From a virus (taxonomy: Duplodnaviria > Heunggongvirae > Uroviricota > Caudoviricetes), in IMG/VR virus record IMGVR_UViG_2541047861_000013: a DNA stretch of 20,787 bases, one strand, 5' to 3'. How positions within the stretch are numbered: the stretch's first letter is position 1; the number at the start of each line of letters is the position of its first letter. Below are positions 1-19,342 of the stretch, in pieces. The notes under the pieces are model-generated. The model had not been told where the DNA came from. It saw only the letters and a list, made by a program, of their open reading frames with translations, and searched no databases. The position numbers were made by a program, and so were the translations under genes.

Positions 1-180
1 AAAGCGGAGGTAATACACCGTAAGAGCTGGAAAAACCGTGCAGAAGTGGAACTGGCCACACTCACGTGGGTGGACTGGTATAACAATCGACGATTGCTGG
101 AAAGGCTGGGCCATACTCCTCCGGCAGAAGCAGAAAAAGCTTATTATGCTTCCATCGGAAACGATGATCTGGCAGCCTGA
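1..180 (+). CDS. IS3-family transposase (OrfB-like), C-terminal fragment; 5' part lies upstream of the window
   Basis: Frame 1 is open from base 1 to TGA at 178-180 and translates to ...ATLTWVDWYNNRRLLERLGHTPPAEAEKAYYASIGNDDLAA, which I recognise as the conserved C-terminal tail of IS3-family transposases. Absent from the ORF track because it has no in-window start. Confidence 0.7.
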   Translation, partial: KAEVIHRKSWKNRAEVELATLTWVDWYNNRRLLERLGHTPPAEAEKAYYASIGNDDLAA

Positions 181-222
181 GTTCACAGATAAAACACTCT
201 CCAGGAAACCCGGGTCGGTTCA
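1..222 (+). mobile_element. Right-hand end of an IS3-family insertion sequence (outer boundary approximate)
   Basis: Transposase 3' end at 180; IS3-family elements end in ...CA, and ...GGTTCA ends at 222, exactly where the adjacent minus-strand tail ORF gets its stop codon (TCA at 220-222 = TGA on minus). Terminal inverted repeat not verified. Confidence 0.45.
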
Positions 223-1131
223 GGCATTATCCTCGCCAACTACCTGCGAAGGGATATAGGAAATCACCTCGGCAGTTGCAGTAGTTCCATTTGCAGCAGT
301 GATACGGGCAATGCCAAAACCACTGTGCAGATATTCCCACTCAATGCCAGTATCATCATCACCGGATCCGCCCCAGCCATCCCATGATGTGCCTTCTGTA
401 TGCGAAGGGCGCAAAGTACCTGTTTTGCCTGCTGTAACGGCGCGATAGTAGTTACTGTCTGCACGGCGAATATCGCCAATCGACGTACTCTTACTGGTTT
501 CCCATACCGGCACTGAATCCACTGCAGGCTGTTCCAGATAGAACAATTTGCCTACCTGCTCCGCGCCAAAAATAGAGGCGCTTGCCGTTAACGTAATTGT
601 CCCGGTGCTGGCGCTGGCATAAACCGTCACTGACTCGTCAATATTGATATCTTCAAATGGCCCGTTCTTCGTTACCACATCAACCAGTTGCCAGTTGTCA
701 TGCGCATAGCGACGCAACTCTTTCGGCGGGTATGCCGGATGAACCAGCGTAAGCACGTCGGCGCTTTGCGTGAATTTAATTCGGAACAGATCGGCTTCAG
801 TATATGGCGTGGCAATTTCATAAATAACATTGCTGCTGTTCAGCACCAACGCACCATCTTTGATAACGCGCATGTACTGGTGTCCGAACTCCAGAGCATA
901 AGTCTGAACCGTCGAGAACTGGAACGGGATCAGGCGGCATTTCCGATTTGGGTATTTGGCGGCACCGACAAAACGCGTACCAGGTCGATTCTCAACGCCG
1001 CCATACTGCCGCACGATAAAGTTATCGCACTTGCGCAATGCCACCTGGTACTTCGCCATGTCGATACGACCGTACAACGACGGTCCAATCTCACCACCGG
1101 CAAAGCTGGGCTGGATCCAACTGATAGCCAT
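220..1131 (-). CDS. Tail tubular protein B (T7 gp12-like nozzle), N-terminal 303 codons; probably truncated by the IS insertion
   Basis: ORF-track protein MAISWIQPSFAGGEIGPSLYGRIDMAKYQ... follows the N-terminal pattern I remember for T7 gp12 (MA.IS....GGIS..P.L), but is far shorter than the ~800 aa of that family; stop codon coincides with the putative IS end; start overlaps upstream stop (ATGA). Confidence 0.5.
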   Translation of the reverse strand: MAISWIQPSFAGGEIGPSLYGRIDMAKYQVALRKCDNFIVRQYGGVENRPGTRFVGAAKYPNRKCRLIPFQFSTVQTYALEFGHQYMRVIKDGALVLNSSNVIYEIATPYTEADLFRIKFTQSADVLTLVHPAYPPKELRRYAHDNWQLVDVVTKNGPFEDINIDESVTVYASASTGTITLTASASIFGAEQVGKLFYLEQPAVDSVPVWETSKSTSIGDIRRADSNYYRAVTAGKTGTLRPSHTEGTSWDGWGGSGDDDTGIEWEYLHSGFGIARITAANGTTATAEVISYIPSQVVGEDNA

Positions 1132-1736
1132 CAGGACAACCTCGCAATGGTAAACTCGTCAACCGGTGGCTGTGGTTCCTGTGATTCATTCTGGCTATGC
1201 GAGCCAGCACTAAGAATCACGCGATTGTACATATTGAGGGCAAACGTACCGAGGTCTGCATTCCCAGTAAGCGCCATGTTAATAGCTGCCGCAAGACGCC
1301 AGGCCAGCGCCTCCATAAAAATGGCATCAAACATGTTCACATCTGTAACGCGAGAGACATACTTGAGCCATGCCTGCGGCTGGTCTGTGTAGATCAACTT
1401 TCCTGTTCCGTTGGTGTCTGCACCAACTTCGTACTGAACGCGCATTGCTGCTGTTGGATTGCGTACACCAGGAAGCATAATTTCAGTAATGCGCAGACAA
1501 TCGGACGGGTACTGATACGCATATTCCCAGTCAGGCGGTGGATTGCTCGTATCTGCAAGCGCCACGCGTTTGGTAGCAAAGTTCCAGTCAAAATCAGAAA
1601 GCACAGCATCACGGCAGGCCTCAAAGTGCAGCGAACATTCCCCCGCTTCCTTGCTGGCTTCCGTCAGGCTGTTAATACTGCGGCTGTTGCCAATATTGGA
1701 CAGCGCACGATTGCAGATCTCTACTACAGAGGCCAT
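1131..1736 (-). CDS. Tail tubular protein A / head-tail adaptor (T7 gp11-like)
   Basis: 201 aa; N-terminus MASVVEICNRALSNIGNSRSINSLTE...DFDWNF resembles the gp11 pattern (..AVNDILASIGEPPVSTLE...RGWTFN); start overlaps the stop of the upstream gene. Confidence 0.5.
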   Translation of the reverse strand: MASVVEICNRALSNIGNSRSINSLTEASKEAGECSLHFEACRDAVLSDFDWNFATKRVALADTSNPPPDWEYAYQYPSDCLRITEIMLPGVRNPTAAMRVQYEVGADTNGTGKLIYTDQPQAWLKYVSRVTDVNMFDAIFMEALAWRLAAAINMALTGNADLGTFALNMYNRVILSAGSHSQNESQEPQPPVDEFTIARLS

Positions 1737-2059
1737 TACTCACCCCCATTGCCGTACAGGGTTTCAGCCGCTGATTTTTCTACATCCCCGGAAACAGGAG
1801 CGATCGCCATATCAGTGATCTGCAGATCGGCGCTGCGATTAACACCATCGTCAGTTTCTCTGGCAGACAGGCCTCGAATAACAGCTTTTGCAGTTATCAT
1901 CACTTCTGTTCCGACGCCATGAGGTTGCGCCTTCAGCTTATTCAATGTGTCGTTATTAAGAGTGATGCACAGCCCCCACGGGTATTCATCGCGAGTTCTG
2001 GTTTCTCCGCTCTCATCCTGGTAGCTGTCAGTGCCGGTTTTGAGGTTTACGAGTTCCAT
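1736..2059 (-). CDS. Hypothetical virion/head-completion protein (107 aa)
   Basis: Start moved to ATG at 2059 (MELVNLK...), which has an AGGAG Shine-Dalgarno 5 nt upstream; the track's start at 2065 is a GTG inside that SD. Confidence 0.45.
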   Translation of the reverse strand: MELVNLKTGTDSYQDESGETRTRDEYPWGLCITLNNDTLNKLKAQPHGVGTEVMITAKAVIRGLSARETDDGVNRSADLQITDMAIAPVSGDVEKSAAETLYGNGGE

Positions 2060-2075
2060 ATACACTCCTGCAATA

Positions 2076-2094
2076 AAGGGGCCGAAGCCCCTTG
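2076..2094 (-). terminator. GC-rich hairpin GGGGC-UUCG-GCCCC with weak U-tract; possible partial terminator or mRNA-stabilising element in the late operon
   Basis: Perfect 5-bp GC stem (7 bp with flanking A-U pairs) around a UUCG tetraloop, 15 nt downstream of the 2110 stop; followed on the minus strand by UUUAUUG. Confidence 0.25.
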
Positions 2095-2109
2095 TCGGAT
2101 TCGCGAGGC

Positions 2110-2445
2110 TTACACGCCTAGTTCTTTACGCTTATCTGCGATCTTCTCGCGGAGCGTTTCGGCTTTGGCGTTATGGTGTGGCTTCTCGTTAAAGAGCAAT
2201 TCGTACTCTTCACGGAGCTTATCCAGTTCACCATCATCTGACACATCGTTGATGATTTTGGTGCTGGTTGCTGCCATTGACACCTTTCCTGCAACTTTTG
2301 CTTTTGCCTGTCTGGCTGCATCGTTAACAGGTTCCAGTGCGCTACCAGGCTCACCTTCGTATTCTATTTCTGCCCCCTCCGGCCACAGAGTGTTATGGAT
2401 ATGAGAGAGGCGCAGAACGCGGTATCTTGGTTTCTCACCTGACAT
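2110..2445 (-). CDS. Hypothetical structural-module protein (111 aa, Lys/Glu-rich)
   Basis: ATG at 2445 (MSGEKPRYRV...) has an AAGGTGA SD 5 nt upstream; the track's start at 2454 is a GTG inside the SD. Confidence 0.45.
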   Translation of the reverse strand: MSGEKPRYRVLRLSHIHNTLWPEGAEIEYEGEPGSALEPVNDAARQAKAKVAGKVSMAATSTKIINDVSDDGELDKLREEYELLFNEKPHHNAKAETLREKIADKRKELGV

Positions 2446-2455
2446 CGATATCACC

Positions 2456-2893
2456 TTAACCAGTTACTTTTGAGCGGATCGGATACGGCGTATTGGCATC
2501 AACATCAAGACTGATACCAGCAGTGAATTCGCCAGCCGTTAGTGGGCCAGTTGCGACAGAGTAGTTAACACGCAGATATCGCTGAACACCGGCAGGCACC
2601 TTTGCAGAAACAACTCGTTTACCTGCTGTCAGGGCGGTCTTTGCCAGTGCGCCACTATCATAAATAGTGGTCCATGAGCTGTTATTCTCACTCGTCTGCA
2701 ACTGGATGTTTACAGTTGCATCACCGCTTGCCGCGGCGGCTGTGTTAACCAGCGCCCAAAACTCAAGCGGGTAACCCACGCCGATATCACGACGTTTTCC
2801 GTCAATTGGACCGAGATCGATTACGTCAGTAGAAGCCGCGGTATTCGTAACCGCCTGAGCTTCGGAGAACATCAACAGTTTGTCGGTGATCAT
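2456..2893 (-). CDS. Putative capsid accessory/decoration protein (145 aa)
   Basis: Immediately downstream of the major capsid gene; Gly/Thr/Val/Ala-rich composition; GGAGA SD 6 nt before the ATG at 2893. Function assigned by position only. Confidence 0.45.
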   Translation of the reverse strand: MITDKLLMFSEAQAVTNTAASTDVIDLGPIDGKRRDIGVGYPLEFWALVNTAAAASGDATVNIQLQTSENNSSWTTIYDSGALAKTALTAGKRVVSAKVPAGVQRYLRVNYSVATGPLTAGEFTAGISLDVDANTPYPIRSKVTG

Positions 2894-2944
2894 CTTCTTT
2901 CTCCATTAGTGGGTCTGTTACGACCCACAGGTTAATAACAGGCG

Positions 2945-3937
2945 TTACACCACGCGGGCTTCTGTTTCCAGAAGCGCATCAGTTTCACGGATTGGTACAC
3001 CACGGAATGAAGTCCACCACTCGCCTTCTGTCTCTTTTACGCTGATAGCCAGAGATGTTTTCTCCAGAGACTGCAGATCAAGAGCCTGGCCTACAGTGCG
3101 GTTCATGTAGAACACCGGGCGGCCCATGCCACGGTTTGGAATGCGATGTAGTGCTTTAACCATCAACTTCGCAATATTTGCGGCAGAGGATGGTTCTGAA
3201 AGATTGCTGACATCGATGTTTGCAATGCGAACAACATAACGCCAGTCACGCAGAGCAAGTCCGTTATCCCATTTGTAATGGGTGCGATAGCCTTCGTACT
3301 TGCCGCCATTAGCATCTTCCAGTGTCACCTGGCCTTTATCTTCCATCTGGATGCCAGCCTTCTGCCCTTTCGGGAAGATGCCATGCACGGTGTTTTCGCC
3401 CCACACCACTAACCAGATTGAGGTGTTATCTGTACCCGTGCCACCAGCATCAATGATGTTCTGAGCATTACCCGCAGACAGGCTGGAATAGCGGGAGGAC
3501 AGTCCCATAAACTGCTGAGGGTTAACGCTGGAATCACCATAAAACAGCGTCTGCGCCATCTGCTGATTCATCGCTTCAATAAATGCGCGGTCTTCAGACA
3601 GGCGGAATTCGGCGGTATTGCCGTTCAGATCAGCCAGTGACTTATCGACTTCCGCATAGGTTTCCAGCATGCCAACGGAATCGGTTACCTGCACTGTGGT
3701 TGATTTGCTTGGCTGTACGCCATAGTTCAGCAAACGCCAGGTAGCTGAAGGTAAACCAGAACGAATGGTGGTTCGGTGTCCGGTAGGAAGGTTCCCTTCG
3801 ACAAAAGGCATATCCTGAAGGATCGGGTTAGTTTGACCGAGAAGCTCGATAATCTTATCGACTTTCCCGTTTGGATCGACGCGCTTACCCCAGTCAGCCA
3901 GCGTTAGCGCAGTTAAGCCTTTAACAGCCATTGTCAT
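2945..3937 (-). CDS. Major capsid protein
   Basis: ~330 aa ORF after the scaffold gene in the canonical portal-scaffold-capsid order; the second ATG (3931) has the better SD spacing. Not confirmed by homology search. Confidence 0.65.
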   Translation of the reverse strand: MTMAVKGLTALTLADWGKRVDPNGKVDKIIELLGQTNPILQDMPFVEGNLPTGHRTTIRSGLPSATWRLLNYGVQPSKSTTVQVTDSVGMLETYAEVDKSLADLNGNTAEFRLSEDRAFIEAMNQQMAQTLFYGDSSVNPQQFMGLSSRYSSLSAGNAQNIIDAGGTGTDNTSIWLVVWGENTVHGIFPKGQKAGIQMEDKGQVTLEDANGGKYEGYRTHYKWDNGLALRDWRYVVRIANIDVSNLSEPSSAANIAKLMVKALHRIPNRGMGRPVFYMNRTVGQALDLQSLEKTSLAISVKETEGEWWTSFRGVPIRETDALLETEARVV

Positions 3938-7264: not shown

Positions 7265-7341
7265 GTGGCATTAGCTCAGTTGGACAGAGCAACCGCCTTC
7301 TAAGCGGTTGGTCGCAGGTTCGAATCCTGCATGCCGCGCCA
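7265..7341 (+). tRNA. tRNA-Arg, anticodon UCU (argU-like), 3' CCA encoded
   Basis: Hand-folded cloverleaf: acceptor GTGGCAT/ATGCCGC (one G-U pair), D-stem GCTC/GAGC, anticodon stem ACCGC/GCGGT with loop CTTCTAA (anticodon TCT), T-stem GCAGG/CCTGC with TTCGAAT loop, discriminator G, CCA. Close to, but not identical with, my recollection of E. coli argU. Confidence 0.85.
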
Positions 7342-7539: not shown

Positions 7540-7962
7540 ATGAAAACAATTGATATGTTGGCTAAGTATCTAAATGAATGGCCATTAAAATATTCTCGTA
7601 TCGTTCAGGCTGAAGACTGCGTTTTTTATGGCGTTTTTGCTGGTAATGAAATGCATTACGAAGTAATTCAGAGTGAGGGACTGACCGGGTTAACTCTTAG
7701 CGAAGACCATGGTACTAGCGTTACGTTCCATGACTGGATAACAGCACAACGTTCTGAAATGGAAAAAGGCGATGTGTTTGATATTTCTCGCTCTGTTTGC
7801 GCTAAAGCAAAAAGTGATAATGATTACATGAGCGAACACTTATACAACATGAAGCTACAGTGCCTTGCCGAGGTGCTTGGTAAAAAAGCTATTGTCGATA
7901 AACAAGGCGCCATTAGCGAAGCAAAGGCAATAAATGCTGCATTTGATGAAATTATTTTCTAG
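7540..7962 (+). CDS. Hypothetical protein, 140 aa; AT-rich moron transcribed opposite to the late operon
   Basis: AAGGTG SD 5 nt before the ATG; a hand count of the first 120 nt gives roughly 35-40% GC, clearly below the flanking phage genes by eye; own downstream terminator; no transmembrane segment or recognisable catalytic motif. Confidence 0.6.
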   Translation: MKTIDMLAKYLNEWPLKYSRIVQAEDCVFYGVFAGNEMHYEVIQSEGLTGLTLSEDHGTSVTFHDWITAQRSEMEKGDVFDISRSVCAKAKSDNDYMSEHLYNMKLQCLAEVLGKKAIVDKQGAISEAKAINAAFDEIIF

Positions 7963-18399: not shown

Positions 18400-18699
18400 G
18401 TGAGAAAGTTAAGCCGACTTGAAAAATACCACATGAATAAGGTTTCAATGCGCAGTCCGTCAAAGATTGTCGCCGTTACTCCTGCGGCGATAGAGATCGA
18501 AAAACGCGCGATTGAAAGAGAGAAAAAAGGGCAGTTCCGCATTGCCGCTCACCTTTGGCTTCAGTGTATGGATGTTGCTTCTGGTGATGTTGAACGTGCA
18601 AGGATCGCGGTTCGCAGGGACCAATGTATCACAAAAGGTAACGGCCTTCGCCGTGGCGACTATAGCGGCATAGGATGTTGTGGGGTGGTTTATGACTAA
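18400..18699 (+). CDS. Hypothetical protein (99 aa, GTG start) translationally coupled to the methyltransferase
   Basis: GAGAGGG SD 9 nt before the GTG; its stop TAA overlaps the methyltransferase start (ATGACTAA). Confidence 0.4.
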   Translation: MRKLSRLEKYHMNKVSMRSPSKIVAVTPAAIEIEKRAIEREKKGQFRIAAHLWLQCMDVASGDVERARIAVRRDQCITKGNGLRRGDYSGIGCCGVVYD

Positions 18700-19342
18700 G
18701 AAATACACACTAATCTATGCAGATCCACCCTGGGTATACCGGGACAAAGCCGCAGATGGTAATCGCGGTGCCGGTTTTAAATATCCAGTTATGAGTGTGC
18801 TGGATATCTGCCGCCTTCCTGTGTGGGATTTGACCGCTGAAAACTGTCTGTTGGCCATGTGGTGGGTGCCAACACAACCACTCGAAGCACTAAAAGTTGT
18901 TGAAGCCTGGGGATTTCGTCTGATGACGATGAAGGGCTTCACGTGGATAAAATGTGGTAGTCGACAACCAGATAAACTGGTTATGGGTATGGGACACATG
19001 ACTCGCGCCAATAGTGAAGATTGCCTGTTTGCGGTAAAGGGAAAACTACCTACGCGCATTAATGCAGGGATCGTTCAGTCATTTACCGCACCGCGGCTTG
19101 AGCATTCAAGAAAGCCAGATATCGTTCGTGAAAAACTTGTGCAATTATTAGGCGATGTTTCTCGCATTGAACTGTTCGCCCGCCAGACGTCTCATGGCTT
19201 CGATGTTTGGGGTAATCAGTGCGAAGACCCGGCAGTGCAACTACACCCTGGATACGCGTTGGATATTGGCGGATTAACAAATGCATTCAGCAATGCTCCG
19301 CTGTCACCAACAGACATCCAGGGGCGGGAGCGTGCTGCATGA
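18692..19342 (+). CDS. MT-A70-family DNA N6-adenine methyltransferase
   Basis: N-terminal ...YTLIYADPPW... (DPPW catalytic motif); start set at the ATG at 18692 rather than the track's upstream GTG. Confidence 0.8.
   Translation: MTKKYTLIYADPPWVYRDKAADGNRGAGFKYPVMSVLDICRLPVWDLTAENCLLAMWWVPTQPLEALKVVEAWGFRLMTMKGFTWIKCGSRQPDKLVMGMGHMTRANSEDCLFAVKGKLPTRINAGIVQSFTAPRLEHSRKPDIVREKLVQLLGDVSRIELFARQTSHGFDVWGNQCEDPAVQLHPGYALDIGGLTNAFSNAPLSPTDIQGRERAA

Follow-up and report, generated by a model that had tools for sequence, protein, structure and literature searches.

Why does a tail gene at the edge of this prophage stop after 303 codons, when its homologue in phage phiV10 runs to 823? The DNA considered here is a 20,787-nt stretch of a Caudoviricetes virus (IMG/VR record IMGVR_UViG_2541047861_000013), called the window throughout. 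It opens with the end of an insertion sequence (IS), and at that end the N-terminal part of a podovirus tail nozzle gene, which lies on the other strand, breaks off. We propose that one copy of IS629 (1310 bp) transposed into the nozzle gene of a phiV10/epsilon15-like prophage of Escherichia coli HVH 222, duplicating the trinucleotide GCC, and that the nozzle was lost, a reading to which we assign a probability of roughly 0.88. The event is of an ordinary, already known kind, and both partners are at least 98% identical to known sequences; the disruption of structural genes by IS elements is a textbook route of prophage decay.

IS629 and its junctions with the nozzle gene

Window positions 1-222 have thousands of near-copies (99.5% identity) in plasmids and Shiga toxin (Stx) phages of E. 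coli and Shigella, and where depositors named the matching element they called it 'IS3 family IS629', 'IS629 transposase OrfB' or 'IS629 ORF2'. The match stops at the last base of a 1310-bp mobile_element, 'IS3 family IS629', in LC567828, which is annotated with a 3-bp target duplication. Together with the left end, found in the source scaffold described below, 222/224 right-end and 122/123 left-end bases equal those of the LC567828 copy; in all, 347 of the 1310 bp could be compared with annotated IS629, and 344 of these agree. Elements of the IS3 family have ends of the form 5'-TGA.../...TCA-3', overlapping orfA and orfB genes, a programmed -1 frameshift and a DDE (rve) transposase. The ends of the present copy read 5'-TGAACCG...CGGTTCA-3', with terminal dinucleotides TG...CA and imperfect inverted repeats of about 25 bp, and the comparison of 181-222 with IS3-family terminal repeats, suggested at the outset, bore this out (Table 1). 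The last 59 codons of OrfB reach Pfam rve_2, one of the integrase-core families rve_2/rve_3, at E=1.3e-5 and 25.6 bits (cut-off 22 bits). These codons and the first codons of orfA are sequenced, and the frameshift region falls within a gap of 705 Ns in the scaffold; a related IS629-type copy in strain 2011C_4247 (L002) carries a programmed-frameshift annotation. Judged by these matches, the element is an IS3-family IS, specifically IS629. At window 215, position 8 from the tip, its right repeat has a private substitution, a T in place of the G found in both the reference and the left repeat. The independent Logan assembly L005 has the same T at this position, and the substitution is therefore real.

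Phage sequence takes over immediately behind the element. In a megablast search of 223-2100 against a phage collection, 20 intact phiV10/epsilon15-like phages match from query base 1 (window 223) at 98-99%, and in a three-way alignment the window tracks the IS to ...GGTTCA (222) and then follows phiV10 from GGCATTATCC (223). Since phage homology begins at 223, the LC567828 match ends at 222 and the second IS629-type copy, that of 2011C_4247, has the same terminal ...GGTTCA, we place the IS/phage boundary at 222/223. The minus-strand open reading frame (ORF) that ends here starts with ATG at 1131 and stops with TGA at 222-220, which gives 303 codons or the N-terminal 37% of the gene. It gains no IS-encoded residue: its final codon, GCC, is the native Ala303, and an in-frame TGA follows at once because the tip of an IS3-family element reads TGA. 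The first-pass annotation had suggested as much, namely that an IS3-family insertion appears to truncate the nozzle gene, that the ORF stops after 303 codons and that its stop codon sits exactly at the presumed IS end. The 40 bp that it counted from the transposase stop is close to the 42 nt measured (181-222, behind the OrfB stop at 178-180), and the boundary does not lie well before 220, a placement that it had named as fatal to its own proposal.

The other junction was found in the source scaffold, KE701088.1 (L003; assembly GCA_000459455.1, E. coli HVH 222 (4-2977443)), which is identical to the window over 11131/11131 shared bases. The window begins 1-2 nt from the 705-N gap, which lies inside the IS. 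Past the gap, the scaffold continues with 123 nt of IS left end up to ...CGGTTCA and then with GCC AGC TAT AAA TGG. Read in gene orientation, it therefore runs ...GATAAT GCC / TGAACCG...IS...CGGTTCA / GCC AGCTATAAATGG, and intact phiV10 has at the same place ...GATAATGCCAGCTATAAATGG, GAT AAT GCC AGC TAT AAA TGG, with a single GCC. The GCC that occurs once in the intact gene thus flanks the IS on both sides, a 3-bp target-site duplication, and the alignment shows that no phage DNA was lost at the insertion. Target duplications of IS629 measure 3-4 bp, and the element favours prophages, in which 62% of its O157:H7 copies sit (PMC3271280). When the IS and one GCC are removed in silico, an uninterrupted ORF of 823 codons results, whose product matches phiV10 gp15 (PhiV10p15) at 816/823 residues. 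Thus the second IS end, its duplication and the continuation of the gene were all found upstream of the window, where the first-pass annotation had expected them, and the comparison with an uninterrupted homologue that it called for agrees.

The junction also occurs outside this one assembly. In L005, which represents 4 samples and is identical over 10.6 kb, 30 nt are read through the same junction, which rules out an artefact of a single assembly. Five contigs encode the exact 303-aa product, and the IS junction is present only in L003 and L005; L004, L006 and L007 simply end at codon 303, where L006 runs on with A, which is the intact allele. All assemblies in which the IS629-split copy was seen belong to one clonal set, with identity over 10.6 kb, and a nucleotide search of the complete E. 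coli genomes in RefSeq did not return the exact insertion, its three best hits being IS629-type insertions elsewhere in the gene. As no other damage accompanies it, the insertion is probably recent and clonally inherited.

The nozzle family and its hinge

What protein has been interrupted? The 303-aa product, a 'hypothetical protein' in NCBI (EQV12787.1, E. coli HVH 222), falls into PHROG phrog_376 'tail protein' (E=1e-134). Its phiV10 homologue PhiV10p15 ('tail protein', similar to epsilon15p12; 2472 nt, 823 aa) aligns end to end (residues 2-822) with 8ck1_A at E=3e-217, chain A of 8CK1 being the 830-aa 'Tail Nozzle' in the cryo-electron microscopy tail structure of Cobetia phage Carin-1. With a profile built from 36 full-length homologues, matches extend to LME-1 orf18, 9efk_M and 9vvr_S, to 9k09_U ('Tail tubular protein B' of cyanophage A4, 1e-10) and to 23sh_T ('nozzle gp13' of HRP29, 3e-7). 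The AlphaFold2 model of the truncated nozzle has a mean pLDDT (predicted local distance difference test) score of 84. The gene order is T7-like, with an adaptor-like gene (201 aa), the nozzle, a 154-aa gene, a T7_gp14-family gene (191 aa, PF24072), an SLT-domain gene (905 aa, PF01464) and a gene for 1004 aa. Pfam assigned no family to the 303-aa ORF, to the full phiV10 protein of 823 aa or to the 201-aa protein encoded upstream. T7 gp12 itself was not returned by phmmer or by the profile search at E<=1, the structural score against T7 gp12 (PDB 6R21) barely exceeds that of unrelated propellers, and searches gave no tie to T7 gp12 for the carbohydrate-binding-like insert in the N-module. The evidence thus supports the label 'tail nozzle / tail tubular protein B class' and does not demonstrate the strict label 'T7 gp12 homologue', which is how far the earlier description 'gp12-like' can be upheld.

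The expected length of the intact protein, put at about 800 aa by the first-pass annotation, agrees with the 823 aa of the lineage and the 830 aa of the Carin-1 nozzle; in RefSeq prophage relatives the gene likewise measures 2472 nt. Among 140 representatives of clusters at 50% identity, taken from an exhaustive search (1.84 billion searched) and first seen among the 150 best matches to the 303-aa protein, 114 have at least 700 aa, 21 have 340-600 aa and 4 have fewer than 340 aa. Another homologue list obtained with the 303-aa query holds no protein above 528 aa, though 823-aa proteins exist that are 99% identical along the entire query; it is length-biased and was not used for lengths.

The shorter forms reveal a feature of the family. 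Two distant relatives carry adjacent genes of 387 and 559 aa (L010, 6001-8840) and of 509 and 574 aa (L011, 6001-9254). Their N-module-only proteins (387 and 509 aa) show about 44% identity and are each directly followed by a C-module gene, in both cases examined. Aligned with gp15, the first genes cover residues 1-299 and the second 307-821 or 299-822; these natural split genes overlap stop to start (ATGA-type coupling), and their C-module proteins bear 35-43 extra N-terminal residues. Among the fused homologues (36 proteins), the near-invariant P294 and W307 are separated by 9-12 aa in 11 cases and by 72-133 aa in 25, and flanking control stretches are constant in length. Because length varies there and not in the control stretches, and the split genes divide there, we take residues 295-306 to be the hinge of the family. 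The comparisons thus indicate that the nozzles of epsilon15/BPP-1-like podoviruses come in fused, fused-with-insert and two-gene forms, with the hinge near residue 300, which may help in the annotation of such phages and in tail engineering. Homologues of about 300 aa had been named in advance as a finding that would speak against truncation. Within the lineage the homologues have 823 aa; the distant ones do have a shorter N-module protein, as one half of a two-piece nozzle.

PHROGs also holds an N-terminal-only family (phrog_20269, 374 positions, 'unknown function') and one for residues 300-823 only (phrog_15566, 552 positions). Both partial families may have been built from split or IS-interrupted genes. 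The figure of 552 positions is also the length of the TTG-started ORF that leaves the IS (31+521 aa).

Consequences of the insertion and competing explanations

What would the insertion do to the prophage? IS629 sits between codons 303 and 304, antisense to the nozzle gene. The cell would be limited to the N-terminal nozzle module, and the other 520 codons lie 1.3 kb downstream without a start of their own or translational coupling. Upstream of the C-part, the open frame extends no more than 45 codons into the IS and contains a single canonical start, a TTG that lies 93 nt upstream and has a weak GGA Shine-Dalgarno sequence. A crude consensus scan found no sigma-70-like promoter on either strand of IS629, and all that a terminator scan gave was a weak 5-bp hairpin, nothing beyond what shuffled sequence would yield; these scans speak neither for nor against read-through. 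The nozzle of podoviruses (T7 gp12 class) forms the tail channel beneath the adaptor. A prophage that lacks it is predicted to be still repressed and able to integrate and excise, to replicate and to fill heads, and the induced lysogen, immune and inducible, would yield tail-less, non-infectious particles. From established knowledge, loss of the nozzle with a tail-less, non-infectious prophage is the most likely outcome. In addition, some 2.9 kb of RNA would go untranslated, namely the antisense IS and the orphaned 3' part of the gene, and by polarity this would reduce expression of the downstream ejection proteins. Polarity is expected because the late genes overlap stop to start in a tightly coupled operon and the untranslated stretch is long, and downstream genes are probably affected in this way.

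Three points weigh against this account. About 960 bp in the middle of the IS are unsequenced (705 Ns in the source scaffold), so that the presence of one complete IS is inferred from the estimated gap size, both ends and the duplication that matches. The scans for promoters and terminators relied on crude consensus patterns. Finally, the IS follows codon 303 and so falls within the 12-residue hinge, residues 295-306 (window 220-255 covers codons 292-303), where a split might be tolerated provided that the C-part is translated. The chance of an IS landing in the hinge is about 12/823, and the hinge was noticed post hoc.

The last point leads to the competitor that survives best, according to which the insertion is not inactivating and the 303-aa N-module together with the TTG-started C-module (31 IS-derived residues plus 521, or 552 aa) forms a working two-piece nozzle. 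The two-gene nozzles of L010 and L011 lend it some plausibility, as does the position of the IS within a stretch that tolerates such different lengths among the fused homologues; moreover, natural C-modules bear 35-43 extra N-terminal residues, and 45 codons are open into the IS. We nevertheless consider it unlikely. The TTG with its poor Shine-Dalgarno sequence is the only start, no promoter-like site was found in the IS by the consensus scan, and the two parts are separated by 1.3 kb of antisense IS, as against the ATGA-type overlap of natural split genes. The coincidence with the hinge was, as said, seen only after the fact. Furthermore, the junction was met only in the clonal assemblies identical over 10.6 kb, with no sign of phage spread, and IS629-type insertions occur elsewhere within the C-module, so persistence of such a copy needs no preserved function. 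If the two-piece reading were true, the insertion would be an accidental copy of the two-gene architecture, a snapshot of the interconversion of fused and split forms, and the phage would be viable and carry its IS.

Could the gap hide more than one element? Two different IS629 copies flanking extra DNA as a composite, or a recombination between IS copies, would also give two IS629 ends, and with some 960 bp of interior unsequenced such an arrangement has room. It seems less probable again, for the same GCC stands on both sides and corresponds to the single GCC of the intact gene, which is the mark of one transposition. The gap estimate of about 1.05 kb between the junctions is near one IS (1.31 kb) and far from two, and the flanks are colinear and in the same orientation.

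Still lower we rank an artefact of assembly or scaffolding, in which a wrong join or a contig end within a repeat would hide an intact gene. The start of the window close to the gap within the IS invites this suspicion, and so do the contigs L004, L006 and L007, which merely end at codon 303, with L006 continuing as the intact allele. Both junctions lie, however, in contiguous sequence that reaches 224 nt and 123 nt into the IS, and they carry a matching 3-bp duplication, which a chimeric join would not make. A single scaffold carries both parts of the gene in colinear order, and L005 (4 samples) reads 30 nt across the same junction.

The 21 representatives of 340-600 aa, the 4 below 340 aa and the N-terminal-only PHROGs family of 374 positions could suggest that the 303-aa ORF belongs to the naturally short forms of its family and is not truncated. 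This can be dismissed, since scaffold KE701088.1 holds the remaining 520 codons behind the IS, in frame and undamaged, and the IS itself supplies the stop codon. Moreover, the gene has 823 codons in every phage of the lineage, and each natural short form examined has a distinct C-module gene behind it.

Prophage context and related insertions

The preferred reading, one IS629 copy in the nozzle gene, also fits the state of the remaining genes. Window 223-2100 is 98.0% identical to phiV10, E. coli prophages adjoining guaA match 92-95% of the window's length at 97-99% identity, and the gene-by-gene order is that of phiV10, with integrase and immunity region present. These similarities assign the prophage to the phiV10/epsilon15-like (Uetakevirus-type) group. 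ORF lengths in the window were checked against a prophage beside guaA that is 98.7% identical and annotated in RefSeq (L009). Equal lengths, within a few codons of alternative upstream starts, were found for the adaptor, the capsid staple gp10, the Bbp16-type cement protein, the major capsid protein, the protease, the portal, both terminase subunits, replication P, a DnaT-like protein, the Cro-like and CI-like helix-turn-helix (HTH) proteins, a PD-(D/E)XK nuclease, RecT, the MT-A70 methyltransferase and the 416-aa integrase at the window's end. The statement of the first-pass annotation that immunity, recombination and accessory genes are intact therefore holds at the level of ORF integrity, relative to this intact annotated relative. 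The 201-aa gene upstream of the nozzle, whose stop overlaps the nozzle start codon, has 606 nt as in phiV10 and the RefSeq relatives, and the genes past the IS (154, 191, 905 and 1004 aa) have the lengths seen in relatives (L002). The IS is the sole lesion in the nozzle gene and its neighbours.

Table 1. Features of the IS629 junction and of the surrounding prophage (window coordinates unless stated)
Feature	Position	Strand	Basis or remark
IS629 (IS3 family), right-hand end	1..222	+	99.5% identity to depositor-annotated IS629 copies
Transposase OrfB of IS629, C-terminal 59 codons and stop	1..180	+	Pfam rve_2; under 'IS629 transposase OrfB' / 'IS629 ORF2' annotations
Right terminal inverted repeat (IRR) of IS629, ending ...GGTTCA	198..222	+	22/25 first bases equal to left repeat of source scaffold
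Truncated tail-nozzle gene, N-terminal module, 303/823 codons	220..1131	-	PHROG, PDB 8ck1_A, AlphaFold2 model; NCBI EQV12787.1
TGA stop of truncated nozzle ORF	220..222	-	Reverse complement of TCA, the last three bases of the IS
Target-site duplication, window copy	223..225	.	GGC on + strand, GCC in gene sense = codon Ala303
Target-site duplication, second copy	L003 11961-11963, outside window		GCC, beyond other IS end
Upstream gene, 201 aa, gp11-like tail adaptor / tail tubular protein A, intact	1131..1736	-	phrog_394 'tail protein' E=4e-87; phrog_9239 'tail tubular protein'
tRNA-Arg (anticodon TCT)	7265-7341	+	Between portal-side and terminase genes; annotated in related prophages as well
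140-aa ORF, opposite strand	7540-7962	+	Slot of 123-aa 'Gp49 family protein' in L009
PerC-family regulator and MT-A70-family methyltransferase, both full length	18400-19342	+	Adjoin integrase; names from L009 annotation

The 140-aa ORF looks like a variable cargo position beside the tRNA gene. A separate observation concerns gp10, whose gene is flanked by the adaptor gene and the next head gene in every other relative examined: in EC.W1-9 (PP445227.1, 5014-5071), a phiV10-like phage isolated from sewage, the nozzle is intact and the gp10 'capsid staple' gene is absent.

IS629-type elements have entered nozzle genes of related prophages as well. In strain 2011C_4247 such an element follows nozzle codon 589 with the duplication ATC (L002 6922-8222), and strains 2013C-3492 and 90-3040 also carry one (L013 ~1413-2722), after nozzle codon 492 in 2013C-3492. 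The elements of all three strains have the same orientation as that of the window and occupy other sites, and 3 of the 451 complete-genome records with the prophage region show an adjacent IS end. The IS-split prophage of 2013C-3492 also has a frameshifted gp10 capsid staple gene (L013 4803-5127), and this copy appears further decayed than the prophage of the window.

The insertion explains why NCBI holds a 303-aa 'hypothetical protein', EQV12787.1, and marks the prophage as probably non-infectious, a prediction, while it keeps its immunity, recombination, methyltransferase and other cargo genes. It adds one more IS629-disabled prophage and has little import beyond annotation.

How does this case compare with known systems? 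IS629 has mostly been studied in enterohaemorrhagic E. coli (EHEC) of serotype O157, and the host here is HVH 222. With IS629 as described, the present element shares the TGAACCG/CGGTTCA ends, the imperfect repeats of about 25 bp, the 3-bp duplication, the rve-type C-terminus of OrfB and the location in a prophage (PMC3271280), and it differs by its private substitution in the right repeat (window 215, T for G). The interrupted gene has the same neighbouring genes as PhiV10p15, epsilon15p12 and the Carin-1 nozzle, with only residues 1-303 translatable here; between T7 gp12 (PDB 6R21) and the window nozzle there is no detectable sequence similarity. The closest precedents in kind are IS-inactivated ('grounded') prophages such as the lambdoid ones of Sakai and EDL933 with IS629-interrupted genes, which are alike in having an IS in a structural gene of a prophage that is otherwise complete, a duplication and vertical inheritance. 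They differ in phage type, being lambdoid where this prophage is a podovirus of the epsilon15/phiV10 group, and in the gene that was targeted, the hit here falling in the hinge of the nozzle.
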